Of a DNA stretch of 64,000 nucleotides, positions 32,219 through 43,879 are shown one piece after another. The notes beneath the pieces were generated by a model, which was not told where the DNA came from, searched no databases, and saw nothing but the letters and a program-made list of their open reading frames with translations. The stretch spans positions 2,383,422 to 2,447,421 of the forward strand of contig OZ242180.1 in NCBI GenBank assembly GCA_965205485.1, written 5' to 3'. Source of the stretch: Candidatus Latescibacterota bacterium (GTDB lineage Bacteria; Latescibacterota; UBA2968; GCA-2709665). A program made the translations under genes and the position numbers. Numbering within the stretch: position 1 is the first letter of the stretch; each line of letters opens with the position of its first letter.

Positions 32219-32264
32219 GGTGCAAGATGCAACATGGTTTCATCCGGGTGACGCAGAATGGAAC
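32219..32264. promoter_or_regulatory. Putative enhancer (UAS) pair for a sigma54 activator
   Basis: GGTGCA-AGA-TGCAAC (32219-32233) and GACGCA-GAA-TGGAAC (32250-32264). The same motif recurs at 41684-41717. Confidence 0.55.
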
Positions 32265-32363
32265 ACATCGTTCAGCAACCGGACGTCGACAAACGGGCTG
32301 CAGGGAGGCTGGCGATTTTTTCTCTTTTGCACTCCAGACAGTTAGGTCCCGGGGTATTGTGAG

Positions 32364-32379
32364 TGGCACAATCCTTGCG
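32364..32379 (+). promoter_or_regulatory. sigma54 (-24/-12) promoter of the precursor peptide genes
   Basis: TGGCACAATCCTTGCG: GG-N10-GC with TGGCAC and TTGC. Confidence 0.75.
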
Positions 32380-32606
32380 AGTCCAATTCGTCGAAGGAGG
32401 CGCGATACGTGCACGAGACGCGTGGCTCGATGTCTCCAATGATTCGCATCAAGAGCAGCGCCAAAGGGGGTGTGTCGAGACCGCGAAATGACACGCATAA
32501 CCCTTTGTAAATCAAGACATTTTGGCGGCGCACATCAGCATACGGTTTATCAGGAAACGGCATCGTTTGGTTGTCGCCGGGATGTCTACGAAAGGAGGTG
32601 ATTGAC

Positions 32607-32810
32607 ATGAAGAGACGCATTGCATCACGCCTTGTAGACACGTCCGGAATTCCGTCTCGGTTGCCCATCCGGACGGAGGACCTGACTGACGGGCAGACGG
32701 CTCGCATCTCCGGTGGAGCCATACGCTGGCGGGCGATACTGAAAGATGTGTTCGGCATCGATCTGGGCACGAATTTGCCGGAAACAGGCGCGGCTGGTCC
32801 ATTGCTGTAG
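32607..32810 (+). CDS. Double-glycine leader peptide precursor 1 (bacteriocin/RiPP)
   Basis: AAAGGAGGTG RBS. 37-aa leader ending EDLTDGQTARISGG. Core AIRWRAILKDVFGIDLGTNLPETGAAGPLL. Confidence 0.8.
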   Translation: MKRRIASRLVDTSGIPSRLPIRTEDLTDGQTARISGGAIRWRAILKDVFGIDLGTNLPETGAAGPLL

Positions 32811-32894
32811 TATTCGAGTTGCATACCAACCAGGTATGTTGCCTGGAAAATCAAACAGGATGTCATACGGACACAATAGAAAGGAATTGACGAA

Positions 32895-33083
32895 ATGACG
32901 GACCAGATCCTTGCCACGTCAGCTCAGGCATCTGTGGCCTGCGCTCAACTCCCAGAACAAGAAATCGGCCTGGCACGTCGTGAGATGGTGAATACATCGG
33001 GGGGTCTTCTACCACCAATTCCGCTTCCTTTAGCCCGTCTGATTGCCGAGATCATCAAGGATTACCTTGACGACGGGGATTGA
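32895..33083 (+). CDS. Double-glycine leader peptide precursor 2
   Basis: GAAAGGA RBS. 37-aa leader ending LARREMVNTSGG. Core LLPPIPLPLARLIAEIIKDYLDDGD. Confidence 0.75.
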   Translation: MTDQILATSAQASVACAQLPEQEIGLARREMVNTSGGLLPPIPLPLARLIAEIIKDYLDDGD

Positions 33084-33532
33084 AGTGGGGGCCAACAGGA
33101 CGAAGTCTCTCCCATTCGCCGGCCTCCGCTGTTGTGAATTCGAACTGAATCTTCAACGACCTCGTTTTTCCAATCTGATCTTCTCCAATAGCGAAGACGA
33201 AGCCGCAAGGGTCGTCAGCGATCTGAAAACTCAACGAGTTGTGGCGATTCTGGGGAGATCCGAAAACGGCTACTTTCTGCGCATCGTTGAAGCGGCCAGA
33301 AAAAACGTGCATTAATGGCAGAGCGGATTAGTTTTAGGTTTGGGGTGAGTTCTGTGGCCTGCCATCAACCTATCGGAGGTCTCGGTGCCTCCGGCGCGGT
33401 CGGAGATCGCGTAAACGGTTTAGCCGAAATTTTCAGATCCATAGCCGTCTCGTGTTGCCAGCGTTTCGGCGAAGCTACAAACACAACGGACGTTAACTTC
33501 GGGATAATCGACTGACTCTACAGGAGGTAATC

Positions 33533-33817
33533 ATGACTCATGCATTGGCGAATCCGATGGCGACTGATGGCGGTCTTATGGTCGTAGACTGCAATCCGCT
33601 TCAGCGGCAGGAAGAAACGCTTAACAGCGGGCAAATGGGAGACACACAGGGCGGAATCTTGATTGGACCGGCCCTTTACTTGATTGCAAAAGCCGCTGCA
33701 CCCTATGTGGCGGGTGCTGTTACTGCAATCGTCGTTGGAGTGGTTCTCGCTGAGATTGCGCCGAACAACGGGTGCAATAGCTGTACGTGCAACACAAGGC
33801 CACCTGGACGCCGTTAG
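33533..33817 (+). CDS. Double-glycine leader peptide precursor 3 (class II bacteriocin-like)
   Basis: AGGAGGT RBS. 41-aa leader ending ETLNSGQMGDTQGG. Hydrophobic 53-aa core ending CNSCTCNTRPPGRR. Confidence 0.82.
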   Translation: MTHALANPMATDGGLMVVDCNPLQRQEETLNSGQMGDTQGGILIGPALYLIAKAAAPYVAGAVTAIVVGVVLAEIAPNNGCNSCTCNTRPPGRR

Positions 33818-33826
33818 GTTTCGTGC

Positions 33827-41354: not shown

Positions 41355-41569
41355 TGTCACCACTCGGGCAGTGCCCGTATGTCGGGTAGCCTACCGAATA
41401 CAATAGCCGACATTCAGGGGCAAGGGTAGCTCCCTTGTCCCCGGCGAATACGTAGGACCTTCCCGCATCCTAAAAGCTGCGTGAGTGGTGACACTGCCCG
41501 GCACCCTTTAATCGGGGTGCCGCTAAGATGCTCATCACTGAACGGCGGGGGATGAAGCGGGATTTTTTT
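41355..41569 (+). ncRNA. Candidate structured non-coding RNA of unrecognised family
   Basis: 11-bp closing helix TGTCACCACTC/GAGTGGTGACA, several internal hairpins, ends at a T-run, begins about 6 nt after the -10 box. Confidence 0.5.
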
Positions 41570-41683
41570 ATGCCCTTCGCTGTTGGTCCTCCTCAACATC
41601 CATCGCGTGTCAACGTCTTCCGTTGCAGTGCCAAGCCGCTGACTTTGTCGTAAGACGCCTACAACATTGGGTCGGCGCCAGGC

Positions 41684-41717
41684 GTTGCAGAATGCGCCAT
41701 ACGATGCAAAATGCATC
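41684..41717. promoter_or_regulatory. Putative enhancer (UAS) pair for a sigma54 activator
   Basis: GTTGCA-GAA-TGCGCC and the perfect palindrome GATGCA-AAA-TGCATC, about 200 bp upstream of a -24/-12 element. Confidence 0.55.
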
Positions 41718-41910
41718 ACATGTTAACGCGCGCGTTCCAGCTACGCAAAAAAAGCACGCAGACACGGGTTTCATCTCACGTCCGCGCCGGCGTACCGGTA
41801 TTTTCCTTGAAGCGTCGAGACGCAAATCGCTACACGTCCGCTTCTCTTCAAAGCGCCTCACCATTTTAGCCAAATGCTTTATATACTTTAAGTTATTCGC
41901 TTATTCAAAT

Positions 41911-41927
41911 CTGGCTCGCATTTTGCA
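41911..41927 (+). promoter_or_regulatory. sigma54 (-24/-12) promoter of the CPBP genes
   Basis: CTGGCTCGCATTTTGCA (GG-N10-GC), preceded by an AT-rich tract. Confidence 0.7.
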
Positions 41928-42085
41928 TATCGACCTGGATTGTTCGACACCCAAACAGGACACCGAATGCGACCGCGGCAAGAGGACTGCCGGAGTTGCG
42001 GGCTCGATGAAATCCGCCGCTCGCGCCGGAATGCGGGGTCGTTGGATCCACTTTCGTCCGGTCGCATCAATAGGGGAGGGAATAA

Positions 42086-42940
42086 ATGGCGTATCCGAAT
42101 CTGAAGCAGTCCGTCTGGCTGATGGTCTTGCTTGTGGTGGCAACGAGCGCGCTGGGGATGATGCTTCATTTCCTCGGCGCCGCGTCGGACAATGAAACAC
42201 GAATCTTCGAATACCTGGGATGGATTCTAAACCTTCCCGTTTTCGCTCTACTCGTGTTATATGCGCAGCGTCGATCCGGTCGGCCCTGGTCGGACGTCCT
42301 GCTCTTAAGGACAGTACCGTGGAAAATGTACCTCCCACTTACTGTCTCGATCCTGGGATTCGGCATTGTCATATCCGACCTTGCAACCTTCGTGCAATAT
42401 CTGATTCCAATTCCCAAAGTATACCTCGAGATATTCCTTGATCTAATGGGGAGCAAAACACCTCTTGGTCTCGCGTTTTATGTTCTCGCGATTCACGCGC
42501 CGCTTACCGAGGAAGTTCTCTGCAGAGGCGTTATTCTTGGCGGGCTGTTAGCCAACGGTACCCGCCGGCGTGCTATTTTTTGGTCTGCAGTGCTGTTCGC
42601 CGCGATGCATATGAATCCATGGCAGTTTCCAGGATCCTTGATACTGGGTCTTGTATTCGCGTGGTGGGTCGTACAGACAGGTTCTTTGCTGCCTGCGTTA
42701 TTCGGTCACGCTCTGAACAATTTTCTGTCGTTGATTTCGGTGCGTATGGAGATATTCCGTCCTATCGAGGATTGGGGTGTTGTGGAGTTTCTGCCATGGT
42801 GGCTGCTTGTGTGCGGTATTGTACTGGCTGCGGTCGGTCTGCGGTGGTTCAATCAAATGGCAAAACGCGAAGGGACGCCGCTGGCTCCACCGGCTGAACC
42901 GGAGCCGGTCGTAACGGCGGTGGCCGAGAAATCAGTCTGA
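42086..42940 (+). CDS. CPBP (CAAX protease/Abi) family intramembrane metalloprotease 1
   Basis: APLTEEVLCRG, LFAAMH, GHALNN. GGAGG RBS. Confidence 0.9.
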   Translation: MAYPNLKQSVWLMVLLVVATSALGMMLHFLGAASDNETRIFEYLGWILNLPVFALLVLYAQRRSGRPWSDVLLLRTVPWKMYLPLTVSILGFGIVISDLATFVQYLIPIPKVYLEIFLDLMGSKTPLGLAFYVLAIHAPLTEEVLCRGVILGGLLANGTRRRAIFWSAVLFAAMHMNPWQFPGSLILGLVFAWWVVQTGSLLPALFGHALNNFLSLISVRMEIFRPIEDWGVVEFLPWWLLVCGIVLAAVGLRWFNQMAKREGTPLAPPAEPEPVVTAVAEKSV

Positions 42941-43024
42941 CGGCGCAACACGCGGGGCGACACTCGACTTGGGTCCGGATTGTTCGACTTGCCGGCATCT
43001 CCTCACCCAAACAGGAGGGAATAC

Positions 43025-43879
43025 ATGGCGTATCCGAATCTGAAGCAGTCGGTCTGGCTGCTGATCTTGTTTTTCCTGATAAGCGCGGCACTGGGTGTAC
43101 CGGTTGCCATCCTGGGTTTCATCCTGGACCAGACTTTGCACGGGAGTCCGTACGTAATCTGGCTATTAACGCTCATCAGTTTCGTTCTGGTGGCTGCTTA
43201 CTCGAAGCGCCGAACAGATCGGACCTGGCGAAATATCCTGCAATTCAGGCCCGTATCCTGGCAACTGTCCCTGCCGCTCGGGGTGTCAATCATCGGCCTG
43301 GCAATCGTCGGTTCAGACCTGGGAAACCTCATGCGACATCTGATACCGGCACCTGAAATAATCGTCAACGCATTGAAGGAGCTGGCGGACAAGGAAAGTC
43401 CCTTTGGGCTGTCTTTTTATGTCATGGTGGTTCAGGCTCCCCTGACTGAGGAAATCCTCTTCAGAGGCATCATTCTCGGCGGCCTGCTGACCCACCGAAC
43501 GCGGAACCGGGCGATCGTCTGGTCCGCGGTCATGTTTGCGCTGTTTCATGCGAACCCGTGGCAATTCCCGATCGCCCTGATATTGGGGATCGTATTCGCG
43601 TGGTGGGTTGTTCAAACCGGGTCCCTGGTACCGGCGATTGCAGGGCATGCGCTGAACAATTTTCTGGCATTGACGGTTGCGCATCTGGAATTATTCGGAC
43701 CGATTGATAGTCCCGATACGGTGGTGTACTATCCGTGGTGGTTGCTTGCCGGCGGTATCGTCCTGGCTGCGGTCGGCTTGCGGTGGTTCAATCAGATGGC
43801 AAAACGCGAAAGTTCATCGCTCGAAAACCGCGTTCAACCGGAGCAGGCCGATGCGCCTGATAACCGGGAACCGGTCTGA
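43025..43879 (+). CDS. CPBP (CAAX protease/Abi) family intramembrane metalloprotease 2
   Basis: APLTEEILFRG, MFALFH, GHALNN. AGGAGG RBS. Tandem paralogue of the upstream gene. Confidence 0.9.
   Translation: MAYPNLKQSVWLLILFFLISAALGVPVAILGFILDQTLHGSPYVIWLLTLISFVLVAAYSKRRTDRTWRNILQFRPVSWQLSLPLGVSIIGLAIVGSDLGNLMRHLIPAPEIIVNALKELADKESPFGLSFYVMVVQAPLTEEILFRGIILGGLLTHRTRNRAIVWSAVMFALFHANPWQFPIALILGIVFAWWVVQTGSLVPAIAGHALNNFLALTVAHLELFGPIDSPDTVVYYPWWLLAGGIVLAAVGLRWFNQMAKRESSSLENRVQPEQADAPDNREPV

Follow-up and report, generated by a model that had tools for sequence, protein, structure and literature searches.

A polymorphic, probable peptide-export locus of Candidatus Latescibacterota with paired DUF3267 and CPBP genes

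Exporters of the cNMP(CAP_ED)-C39-ABC "long type", together with HlyD and a SurA-like rotamase, define groups I, II and VI of the cyanobacterial bacteriocin clusters, in which this trio was described in 2011 (PMC3140520). In Synechococcus elongatus, the small GG-motif proteins EbfG1-4, exported by the C39 transporter PteB, are reported to enable biofilm formation (PMC4997328). The one characterised member of DUF3267 (PF11667) is TmcP, shown in 2026 to be the intramembrane leader peptidase of TMcin; it carries HExxH and a distal Asp and cuts a 45-residue leader off the membrane-embedded precursor TmcA (PMC13712780). TMcin homologues were reported only in Bacillota and Actinomycetota (PMC12328743). 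As for CAAX/CPBP proteases, bacteriocin immunity has been reported repeatedly (PMC9298176, citing Kjos 2010), and the same source describes a CAAX protease, SilX, that appears to process a signalling peptide and not to confer immunity.

The locus studied here lies in a window of 64,000 nucleotides (the whole stretch of DNA analysed), from an uncultured, probably sponge-associated Candidatus Latescibacterota bacterium. It has the same trio of long-type C39 exporter, HlyD and rotamase as the cyanobacterial clusters. With two Bacillus plasmids it shares GG peptides, DUF3267, a C39 exporter and HlyD; on these plasmids, two GG-leader genes annotated as class IIb bacteriocins are followed by DUF3267, peptidase-ABC and HlyD, and the DUF3267 gene sits where an immunity gene is usually found. 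The initial annotation, which recognised the combination from no characterised system, was thus overstated in view of the cyanobacterial, Bacillus and TmcP precedents. The novelty lies in the paired DUF3267 and CPBP module.

All components listed in that annotation are present on the plus strand, in the order three peptide genes, DUF3267, cNMP-C39 ABC exporter, HlyD, PpiC-like protein and two CPBP genes, the second DUF3267 gene being broken; GG-leader peptides do lie beside HlyD, CPBP and a C39 ABC exporter with intact catalytic residues. Between 32 and 44 kb, dedicated modifying enzymes of the radical SAM, YcaO and Lan kinds were looked for and not found. The cluster most likely exports three fast-evolving small peptides, which are probably bacteriocins, and its membrane proteases probably act in producer protection or peptide maturation.

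Precursor peptides and export genes

32607-32810, plus strand: pep1, precursor of 67 aa; leader of 37 aa with ISGG at its end, amphipathic core of 30 aa
32895-33083, plus strand: pep2, precursor of 62 aa; leader of 37 aa with TSGG at its end, core of 25 aa that has an acidic tail
33533-33817, plus strand: pep3, precursor of 94 aa; leader of 41 aa with TQGG at its end, core of 53 aa, allele type a
35856-38891, plus strand: long-type peptidase-containing ABC exporter (Pfam: two cNMP_binding, Peptidase_C39, ABC_membrane, ABC_tran)
38919-40322, plus strand: HlyD-family membrane-fusion adaptor with an N-terminal anchor (Pfam; TIGR01843 at 201.6 bits, cut-off 208.65)
40319-41134, plus strand: PpiC/parvulin-type rotamase protein, TIGR04500-related, its start overlapping the HlyD stop by 4 nt

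The three short ORFs with strong ribosome sites (GAAAGGAGGTGA upstream of pep1) and GG leaders were borne out, and the leaders quoted in the initial annotation are correct. A comparison with Pfam and NCBIfam matched no bacteriocin or leader model to the peptides. Among 14 same-genus loci, pep1 was present in all, with two core allele types, pep2 in 13, commonly as two copies, and pep3 in 13 (type a in 6, type b in 7). Since these ORFs keep their ribosome site and leader from locus to locus, and synonymous changes are in excess in the leaders (52-59% of single-site codon differences), their sequences mark them as genuine genes, more than chance. In pairwise comparison, pep1 leaders were on average 66% identical and pep1 cores 47%; mean identity of leader and core was 56% and 36%, respectively, for pep2 and 48% and 28% for pep3. 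The core alleles were discrete. Such hypervariable cores behind conserved leaders agree with the bacteriocin or signal-peptide arsenal suggested earlier. The three families have a common leader pattern: Gly-Gly occupies -2/-1, and of the Leu and Pro at -19/-18 the former is invariant and the latter nearly so. Leader models searched in the 5.1-Mb genome matched nothing beyond the peptides of the locus. Relatives of the peptides formed 79 clusters, of which the named ones were all "hypothetical protein" from MAGs labelled Latescibacteria or Gemmatimonadota. The pep3 core of the window combines a hydrophobic stretch (segment at residues 50-68) with a Cys-rich basic C-terminus, and the layout of leader, hydrophobic helix and C-terminal part is comparable to that of TmcA.

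In the C39 domain of the exporter, Gln, Cys, His and Asp align with the residues of PCAT1 and LahT150; by this alignment the catalytic tetrad is intact, the Gln adding to the Cys, His and Asp already noticed. All best NCBIfam matches of the exporter fell below their cut-offs, the top one being the HlyB-type TIGR01846 (640 bits vs 725.55). The hydrophobic segment of HlyD spans residues 38-56. The PpiC-like protein, which has no hydrophobic N-terminus, scored 83.2 bits against TIGR04500, below the 180-bit cut-off; this NCBIfam family comprises a PpiC-related "putative peptide maturation system protein". Eight TolC-like ORFs are located elsewhere in the genome.

The arrangement peptides, DUF3267/CPBP, ABC-HlyD-PpiC, CPBP was recovered in 13 of the 14 same-genus loci; in the remaining one (L028) the match to the exporter gene covered no more than its first third, and HlyD, PpiC and the downstream CPBP were not seen. 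Six loci of a second family have the ABC-HlyD-PpiC core with DUF3267 upstream. A leader-bearing peptide accompanies it in five of them, none being detected in L026; no CPBP gene was detected after PpiC in any of the six, and an upstream one in only three. The co-occurrence of DUF3267 with ABC-HlyD-PpiC that was to be checked across related MAGs is found in two families.

Because the catalytic tetrad is intact, the leaders are conserved and the genes are linked, we propose with high confidence that the C39 domain would recognise the leaders of the three precursor families, for export by ABC/HlyD. Cleavage would occur after GG, by analogy with the PCAT family, and the peptides would leave by way of ABC/HlyD together with a TolC-like channel whose gene lies elsewhere. 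The PpiC-like protein, which has no signal sequence, would probably handle Pro-containing precursors in the cytoplasm, and the two cNMP domains of the exporter probably gate export.

Membrane proteases and pep3 alleles

33895-34707, plus strand: DUF3267_1 (PF11667, 58.2 bits, cut-off 27.1)
34829-35430, plus strand: DUF3267_2, a short-form paralogue; pseudogene made of two overlapping ORFs in different frames
42086-42940, plus strand: CPBP1 (PF02517, 68.7 bits), Rce1-like glutamic intramembrane protease with EExxxR, FxxxH and HxxxN intact
43025-43879, plus strand: CPBP2 (PF02517, 73.6 bits), paralogue of CPBP1 with EExxxR, FxxxH and HxxxN intact; start picked by similarity to the CPBP1 N-terminus, the ORF being open from TTG 42980

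DUF3267_1, a long form of 270 aa, has six hydrophobic segments in hydropathy analysis and is a putative intramembrane zinc protease of the S2P clan. The DUF3267 alignment (A1) showed an invariant HExxH and an invariant distal GD, and HExxH was present in 31 of the 32 DUF3267 ORFs, the exception being the C-terminal piece of the window pseudogene. Two HExxH DUF3267 proteins had initially been annotated: the first was confirmed (PF11667, HExxH), and the second proved to be a frameshifted pseudogene, with a HEALH-bearing N-terminal piece (34829-35098), a C-terminal piece (35008-35430) and a frame switch at a G-run (35082-35084). We found no indel at this G-run in contigs from four public runs (two samples of one study, probably the source). 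Orthologues of DUF3267_2 are intact in L012, L015 and L018 (194-212 aa).

Orthologues of DUF3267_1 were present in 13 of the 14 same-genus genomes, and a relative in 27/41 related genomes and in 11/16 of a genus in the second family. Their identity was 65.9% vs 92.5% for the exporter in L015, and 47.2% vs 82.0% in L021, a divergence much faster than that of the exporter at the sequence level. Among plasmids at E 0.01, DUF3267_1 had no staphylococcal relative, its best matches being Bacillus proteins with 29% identity. All three CPBP motifs were found in 42 of the 53 CPBP ORFs; a recognisable EExxxR was missing from the other 11.

The DUF3267/CPBP module varies in copy number between loci, and pseudogenes occur. 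Type b of pep3 was directly followed by a short DUF3267 and a CPBP gene in 9/9 loci having this type, and an intact short DUF3267 followed pep3 in 0/6 type-a loci, counts that do not represent independent events, the compared genomes being kin. Four second-family loci (L023, L025, L026 and L027) have DUF3267 genes with no type-b peptide detected upstream. In the window, pep3 is directly upstream of a DUF3267 gene.

Function of the peptides and proteases

The best reading of the locus is a polymorphic bacteriocin-like arsenal with type-I-like export, in which the intramembrane proteases would serve the immunity to, or the maturation of, their cognate peptides. The full form that we favour, with a rough probability of 0.55, is a polymorphic system for peptide export, specific to this lineage of Candidatus Latescibacterota, with bacteriocin cores and protective membrane proteases. 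The mature peptides, with amphipathic or membrane-seeking cores of 25-60 residues, would most likely act as bacteriocins on the membranes of competitors. The DUF3267 (S2P-clan zinc) and CPBP (glutamic) proteins, variable in number and allele-linked, would most likely guard the membrane of the producer itself, for instance by cutting peptide that has inserted there. However, the sole characterised DUF3267 protein is a maturation protease (PMC13712780), and CPBP proteins can process signals, as SilX apparently does (PMC9298176).

The proteases could instead be biosynthetic, a reading that we consider possible but doubtful. Precursors of pep3 type, and perhaps others, would use their hydrophobic core to insert into the producer membrane. 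There the neighbouring DUF3267, with or without CPBP, would carry out a processing step that they require, and the exporter would extract the product. The removal by TmcP of the leader of membrane-embedded TmcA, the TMcin-like layout of pep3, the DUF3267 gene right after it, the type-b linkage and the invariant catalytic residues of DUF3267 are all consistent with such maturation. A predicted complex of DUF3267_1 with pep3 lends it weak support (median score 0.56, from 0.56, 0.56 and 0.61; best of three controls 0.00), the runs agreeing in at least 53% of contacts with a partner pLDDT of at least 60. Of 80 solved complexes, 58 reached this mark, as did 2 of 110 mismatched pairs, but scores up to 0.60 included only 7 of those 80 complexes and both mismatches, a band in which a prediction is more often wrong than right. 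Moreover, the GG leaders and the intact C39 site make a second leader peptidase unnecessary, and the Bacillus loci likewise pair DUF3267 with a peptidase-ABC. The copy number, pseudogenes and fast divergence of DUF3267/CPBP are more like immunity arrays, DUF3267_1 has no staphylococcal relative in the plasmid search, and the reported range of TMcin homologues points the same way.

We judge it improbable that the peptides are signals or extracellular-matrix/biofilm factors, released under cyclic-nucleotide gating through the N-terminal domains of the exporter and processed or sensed by the membrane proteases. Of the three cores in the window, two are acidic or neutral and not cationic, which is unusual among membrane-active bacteriocins; the two cNMP domains, the EbfG1-4/PteB and SilX precedents, and a TIGR04500-like match in the Synechococcus elongatus control genome also suit this idea. 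However, the locus lacks receptor genes, histidine kinases and response regulators included, and its Bacillus parallel concerns annotated class IIb bacteriocins. Toxin-immunity diversification usually shows itself as it does here, in discrete core alleles behind a conserved leader, in duplication of peptide genes and in membrane-protein modules linked to particular alleles. Finally, spurious small ORFs beside an exporter whose substrate, large and RTX-type or of another kind, has its gene elsewhere, as the HlyB-type best match of the exporter might suggest, are close to refuted by the catalytic Cys, His and Asp kept in the C39 domain, the frame, ribosome site and leader kept across 14 loci with their synonymous excess, the restriction of leader-model matches to the locus and the association of peptide genes with the exporter in two families.

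Non-coding elements of the locus

35626-35663: two tandem 16-bp palindromes of the type ATACTA-N4-TAGTAT, some 200 nt before the start of the exporter gene
41321-41575, plus strand: structured RNA element (promoter 41321-41349, rod 41354-41493, then a GC hairpin, T-run near 41565-41575)

The palindrome was matched twice in the 64-kb window vs 0.01 expected. A similar one lies upstream of the exporter in 12 of 13 aligned same-genus rows (window included, L028 left out), none being seen in L016, and the pair may serve the export operon as operator or promoter.

The promoter of the structured RNA was sigma-70-like in a promoter scan. Twelve same-genus loci had sequence across this gap (that of L028 stops short); 11 of them carry the element, with nucleotide identities of 87-94%, and L020 does not. 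The region is conserved in all reading frames. The rod showed covariation, and model R1 gave the element 151.4 bits. Of 141 genomes taken as a sample of the phylum, 54 contain this covarying structured RNA family of about 140 nt, which lies inside the locus.

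Gene order and probable export route

Every gene family of the locus other than the peptides was confirmed with Pfam and NCBIfam. The features occur in the following order in the window:

32607–32810 (+): pep1, small ORF with a double-glycine leader (ORF listing and direct reading)
32895–33083 (+): pep2, small ORF with a double-glycine leader (ORF listing and direct reading)
33533–33817 (+): pep3, small ORF with a double-glycine leader (ORF listing and direct reading)
33895–34707 (+): DUF3267_1, long-form putative intramembrane zinc protease of the S2P clan (PF11667, 58.2 bits, cut-off 27.1)
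34829–35430 (+): DUF3267_2, short-form paralogue, broken, split at the G-run 35082–35084
35856–38891 (+): exporter of 1011 aa with two cNMP stretches, C39, ABC transmembrane domain, and ATPase (Pfam)
38919–40322 (+): HlyD (Pfam/NCBIfam family) with an N-terminal anchor
40319–41134 (+): PpiC-type protein, whose start overlaps the HlyD stop
Intergenic gap of 950 nt from PpiC to CPBP1, in (+) strand order, containing a structured RNA element (41321–41575)
42086–42940 (+): CPBP1, Rce1-like (PF02517, 68.7 bits)
43025–43879 (+): CPBP2, Rce1-like (PF02517, 73.6 bits)

The initial annotation had described a C39 exporter carrying Cys, His, and Asp, and we recovered these residues, together with Gln, over ~130 residues aligned with the reference C39 proteins PCAT1 and LahT150 (E 1e-21). 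The two CPBP genes proposed downstream are both present with the EExxxR, FxxxH, and HxxxN motifs. The two HExxH DUF3267 genes stood only in part: DUF3267_1 is intact and DUF3267_2 is a frameshifted pseudogene in this population, because it is split at the G-run and the contigs of four public sequencing runs (two samples of one study, probably the source) contain no inserted or deleted letter there. The orthologues of DUF3267_2 are intact ORFs of 194–212 aa. In the contigs of all four runs, position 35007 carries a T>G change, as the sole variant in two of them (X1 and X4) and as a share in the others (X2 and X3).

The exporter combines a cNMP extension (PF00027, two stretches, 98.1 bits) with a C39 domain (PF03412, 135.7 bits), a transmembrane domain (PF00664, 185.3 bits), and an ATPase (PF00005, 118.6 bits). 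None of the proteins of the locus, among them the exporter, HlyD, and PpiC, reached the curated cut-off of any equivalog model to which it was compared, and we thus considered them as relatives rather than members of these families. The exporter obtained 507.7 bits for a cut-off of 523.85 with TIGR01193 and 585.3 for 853.3 with TIGR03796. The PpiC-type protein obtained 83.2 bits with TIGR04500, over profile positions 87–336 of 340, for a cut-off of 180, which none of the 151 genomes of the phylum reached. TIGR04500-like proteins with strong scores, often in several copies, were present in all 14 genomes of this genus and all 20 of a sister-family genus, and the model also found matches in the Synechococcus elongatus control genome.

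The catalytic C39 domain, the GG leaders, the anchored HlyD, and eight TolC-like ORFs located elsewhere in the same genome fit a PCAT-type, type-I-like export route, in which the precursors would be cleaved after the GG. The PpiC-type protein is probably cytoplasmic, since it lacks a hydrophobic N-terminus and its open frame contains no earlier start; the nearly invariant Leu-Pro of the leaders suggests that the precursors are its clients. Tandem 16-bp palindromes at 35626–35663 (two found in the window for 0.01 expected) probably mark an operator of the export operon, and a similar palindrome was recovered in 12 of 13 aligned same-genus rows (absent from L016, with L028 outside the alignment).

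Conservation and diversification of the locus

We compared the window with 19 fetched homologous loci, giving 14 loci of the same genus (window included) and six of a second family of the same order; nearly all belong to Candidatus Latescibacterota MAGs, two being labelled Gemmatimonadota, and all comparisons are among related MAGs. A relative of DUF3267_1 was detected in 27 of 41 related genomes, with 13/14 in the same genus and 11/16 in the genus of the second family. The co-occurrence of DUF3267 with C39, HlyD, and rotamase genes across related MAGs, which the initial annotation had suggested as a check, was observed. The full order was present in 13 of the 14 same-genus loci: peptides, one to three DUF3267 genes with CPBP genes among them, exporter, HlyD, and PpiC, one to three more CPBP genes, and a DegT-like aminotransferase. 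In L028, the match to the exporter gene was limited to its first third, and HlyD, PpiC, and the downstream CPBP genes were not seen. All six second-family loci possess the exporter-HlyD-PpiC core with DUF3267 upstream; CPBP genes were found after PpiC in none of them and upstream in three, and a leader-bearing peptide in five (none in L026). In three of these loci (L023, L025, and L027), the peptide gene lies ~3 kb away from the DUF3267 genes; in L023, this interval is occupied by two glycosyltransferase genes (6862–9567 of that locus, GT28-C-like and group 1). L023 also contains a 135-aa leader-bearing ORF (9928–10335) whose leader ends in G-L-G, and L024 a leader-bearing precursor (about 1668–2000, oriented) whose core, rich in Gly and Ala, recalls class IIb peptides.

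A lack of conservation of the small ORFs would have spoken against the proposed system, as the initial annotation had pointed out; they turned out to be conserved in 13–14 of the 14 same-genus loci. By scanning the loci with leader HMMs, from which all our peptide counts derive, we found pep1 in 14/14, pep2 in 13/14 (not in L011), and pep3 in 13/14 (not in L013), with a ribosome site conserved at each peptide gene. The leaders have constant lengths of 37, 37, and 41 residues in pep1, pep2, and pep3, respectively, and 52–59% of the single-site codon differences within leaders are synonymous. The proposal that double-glycine-leader substrates adjoin the exporter also held, with three precursors upstream: among 29 aligned members of the three families, Met1, Leu -19, and Gly-Gly at -2/-1 are invariant (29/29 for the latter) and Pro -18 nearly so. 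In the genome itself (one contig of 5.13 Mb), the leader models matched only pep1–3 (E 1e-21 to 1e-23), and the match ranking after these was at 0.02. The peptides matched no Pfam or NCBIfam family (zero families for each at E 0.01 and 0.1, respectively), the models tried including those for NHLP, Nif11, and class IIb lactobin A/cerein 7B precursors. A profile search among 5.8 billion proteins retrieved 79 clusters of relatives, all without a Pfam domain; those with a name are all “hypothetical protein” from MAGs labelled Latescibacteria or Gemmatimonadota.

The cores diverge more than the leaders, with mean pairwise identities (leader/core) of 66/47% for pep1, 56/36% for pep2, and 48/28% for pep3. 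They fall into discrete alleles, two for pep1, at least four for pep2, and two for pep3, which were assigned by eye after single-linkage clustering had merged all families and was discarded. In pep3, type a combines an extended hydrophobic stretch with a basic end rich in Cys, and type b has one N-terminal hydrophobic helix followed by a C-terminal part of ~35–40 residues. DUF3267_1 also varies faster than the exporter, with identities of 65.9% vs. 92.5% in L015, 54.1% vs. 82.4% in L019, and 47.2% vs. 82.0% in L021.

A type-b pep3 is directly followed by a short DUF3267 (149–232 aa) and a CPBP gene in 9/9 loci, seven from the genus (L012, L014–L018, and L028) and two from the second family (L024 and L029); these genomes are kin, hence the nine are not independent events. 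None of the six type-a loci has an intact short DUF3267 at that place, the copy of the window being a pseudogene. The converse does not hold, as L023, L025, L026, and L027 possess DUF3267 genes without a detected type-b peptide. When tblastn was used alone, the type-b pep3 of L012 and L017 were missed and the linkage seemed weaker (five loci and two “orphans”).

In both protease families, we observed remnants and pseudogenes beside well-preserved copies. The HExxH motif is present in 31 of 32 DUF3267 ORFs, the exception being the C-terminal piece of the pseudogene of the window, and H150, E151, H154, G233, and D234 are invariant in the alignment of DUF3267_1 (A1, 11 sequences). The same-genus loci carry two to six intact CPBP copies each, paired with DUF3267. 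Across loci, the three CPBP motifs are complete in 42 of 53 ORFs. The 11 ORFs without a recognisable EExxxR are a 145-aa remnant in L016, the CPBP of L029, and, in nine relatives (L012–L017, L019, L021, and L022), the first CPBP after PpiC; from its sequence, this paralogue may be a non-catalytic variant. Both copies of the window retain the motif.

Relationship to known systems and proposed roles of the proteases

The exporter/HlyD/rotamase trio corresponds to the “long type” set of the cyanobacterial clusters of groups I, II, and VI (Wang, Fewer and Sivonen, 2011; available part of PMC3140520). According to the same part of that paper, groups I and II combine an N-terminal CAP_ED/cNMP domain, C39, ABC, HlyD, and a SurA-like rotamase, with arrays of double-glycine precursors nearby. 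The present locus differs in being hosted by another phylum and in having precursors that NHLP and Nif11 models do not match; furthermore, CAAX or Abi proteins are not mentioned in the available text of PMC3140520, a literature search for DUF3267 did not retrieve this paper, and PF11667 gave no match in the S. elongatus control genome. With the PCAT/AMS proteins (PCAT1, LahT, and ComA), the exporter shares C39, the ABC core, and GG-leader substrates, but it has an additional N-terminal region of ~290 residues containing two cNMP domains, a diderm host, and HlyD and TolC-like partners. The CPBP proteins are Rce1-like with EExxxR and FxxxH, as are the Abi/CPBP proteins of class II bacteriocin loci, for which the accessible portion of PMC9298176 gives immunity, processing, or receptor roles; they differ from these by their arrays of two to six intact copies and their pairing with DUF3267, and their function here is putative. 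The novelty of this locus lies in its leader family, in its host phylum, and in the association of DUF3267 with CPBP. Three lines of research that had so far run apart meet here: the cyanobacterial clusters with a long-type exporter and a rotamase, most products of which are still uncharacterised; immunity through Abi/CPBP proteins; and the DUF3267 family of intramembrane proteases, characterised only recently. The 9/9 link between one peptide allele type and a DUF3267+CPBP pair provides a testable hypothesis on what most DUF3267 proteins do, and the peptide cores are short enough for synthesis.

We favour, with a probability of about 0.55, an immunity role for the DUF3267 and CPBP proteins as part of a peptide arsenal, and rank it first since leader removal already lies within the capacity of the exporter. 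The variable arrays, the allele linkage, and the rapid divergence argue for this role, and CAAX/CPBP proteins have repeatedly been reported as bacteriocin immunity factors (PMC9298176, in its accessible portion). Additional support comes from two plasmids of the Bacillus cereus group (NZ_CP031077.1 and NZ_CP012101.1), in which two GG-leader class IIb peptide genes are directly followed by DUF3267, a peptidase-ABC, and HlyD, in the same order as here; in a single comparison, the Bacillus DUF3267 was 29% identical to DUF3267_1 over 143 residues (E 2e-17). These loci, of the lactobin A/cerein 7B family, differ from ours by their location on Gram-positive plasmids, their single DUF3267, and the absence of CPBP, rotamase, and cNMP domains. 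A Prevotella DUF3267 match had no such bacteriocin-exporter context. We found no literature on a role of DUF3267 in cerein-7B loci; among the papers listed by a search for DUF3267, two reports on TMcin were the only ones to place the family in a context of peptide export or bacteriocins, and we found none in which it is paired with CPBP.

In-membrane maturation of the peptides comes second and appears rather unlikely to us. Its main argument is TmcP, the sole characterised DUF3267, which removes the leader of a membrane-embedded TMcin precursor (available part of PMC13712780). In the TMcin cluster of Staphylococcus aureus and other Gram-positives, a DUF3267 with HExxH and a distal Asp lies beside a precursor with a long leader (45 residues vs. 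41 here) and a transmembrane helix, with ABC export (PMC12328743 and PMC13712780, as far as available), and pep3 resembles this precursor, TmcA, in its leader-helix-tail layout, on which the comparison is based. A complex prediction for DUF3267_1 and pep3 gave a median of 0.56 (best control 0.00; agreement at least 53%, partner pLDDT at least 60), which supports an association weakly, as this band holds 7 of 80 solved complexes and both of the mismatched pairs that passed. The AlphaFold2 model of DUF3267_1, from an eight-row alignment, has a mean pLDDT of 45 and a pTM of 0.37. Unlike TMcin, the locus has a leader ending in GG, a C39 domain in its own exporter, and a diderm host. The combination of a leader cut by DUF3267, a peptidase-less ABC, and a TmcE escort, as in TMcin, was not found here, and no counterpart of TmcE or TmcD, nor any escort-like gene, was recognised in the window. 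TMcin homologues are reported from Bacillota and Actinomycetota only, in the available text of PMC12328743.

A bolder and equally doubtful proposal, drawn by analogy with TMcin, is that pep3-type peptides would represent membrane-embedded bacteriocins of the TMcin kind, the first from a diderm phylum, each core allele travelling with its own cognate pair of intramembrane proteases, DUF3267 (zinc) and CPBP (glutamic). The pair may then recognise the transmembrane helix of the peptide in the membrane of the producer, either maturing it or destroying stray copies, and the C39 exporter may subsequently cut the GG leader and extract the peptide. If true, membrane-active ribosomal peptides would generally have DUF3267 as a partner, across phyla, and the cerein-7B-type loci of Bacillus would provide a third instance.

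A role in signalling or in biofilms, comparable to that of EbfG/PteB in S. elongatus, ranks third and is improbable; to our knowledge, EbfG/PteB has no DUF3267 or CPBP module. What that system offers in favour of such a role is its combination of small GG-motif proteins, C39 ABC export, and biofilm promotion (available part of PMC4997328). Finally, the peptides may be glycosylated, given the glycosylation-type genes bordering the locus, but a type-I-like route would bypass periplasmic glycosylation. The bordering genes encode a TMEM260-like transferase with TPR and a GtrA upstream, at 29393–32001 (-), and the DegT-like aminotransferase downstream, at 43960–45429 (+).

We know of no cultured member of Candidatus Latescibacterota, nor of anything on competition or communication in this phylum. 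Returning to the preferred arsenal with immunity proteases, the high polymorphism of the locus and its presence in nearly all genomes of one genus make it a strong candidate for strain-level antagonism. Such antagonism may operate in sponge communities; runs from sponge and marine metagenomes contained 5–9% of the sampled words of the locus, a hint of habitat only.

Structured RNA element and neighbouring features

The gap between PpiC and CPBP1 provides a separate lead, a structured RNA family. A stretch of ~255 nt (41321–41575, +) is shared, at 87–94% identity, by 11 of 12 same-genus loci covering the gap (the exception is L020, and L028 stops short of it); its conservation exceeds that of the flanking genes and extends to all reading frames. 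A promoter scan placed a promoter-like site (TTGTCA-17-TATATT) at its 5' end, and its 3' end is a T-run. A 41-aa ORF at 41528–41653 was rejected as a gene, since a 1-nt indel among relatives breaks its frame.

We found diverged copies of the element elsewhere in related genomes (20 fetched, 17 distinct). With these 17 and eight locus copies, RNAalifold predicted 35 nested pairs, and compensatory changes occur in 22 of these. Paired cells amounted to 96.0% vs. 35–47% with slid partners, double-change pairs to 22 vs. 7–11, and 0 of 500 shuffles reached any of five measures. The covariance model recovered one copy in the genome itself (151 bits); of the 141 genomes of the phylum that were sampled, 54 contained the element, in up to 13 copies each. 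Most diverged copies are followed, after 40–100 nt, by a ribosome site and an ORF, whose nature differs between copies (small proteins without known function, DUF1232, a restriction enzyme of the MunI type, and a WD40 protein). The best resemblance in Rfam was to sRNA-Xcc1 (RF02221), at 27.6 bits, below the gathering score of 53 (E 0.006–0.02); according to the part of the preprint available, this RNA precedes the gene of the symE toxin in integron cassettes of Xanthomonas (bioRxiv 10.1101/2025.06.18.660453). From these sequence features, the element may be read as a new family of structured RNAs, leaders or sRNAs, associated with accessory genes. A riboswitch fits less well, because the genes downstream of 10 copies are heterogeneous, which a single ligand would not explain. 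In one related genome, identical copies occur at four places (L054–L057) together with a 210-aa unknown ORF, which suggests a repeated or mobile unit.

A second export cassette is located ~31 kb upstream of the locus, at 1–1067 of the window and beyond (11102–17489 of L047, a stretch reaching upstream of the window). It encodes HlyD, a short-type C39 ABC of 705 aa, and a 980-aa ABC without peptidase, and resembles a three-gene transport set in the available part of PMC3140520. Just downstream of it (3036–4442), we observed an ORF resembling cytidine/deoxycytidylate deaminases and a WelO5-like ORF of the carrier-independent halogenase family. At 27999–29053 (-), an ORF of 201 aa with a PIN_12 domain overlaps the start of a 150-aa ORF without any family, and from this arrangement the two may form a toxin-antitoxin-like pair.
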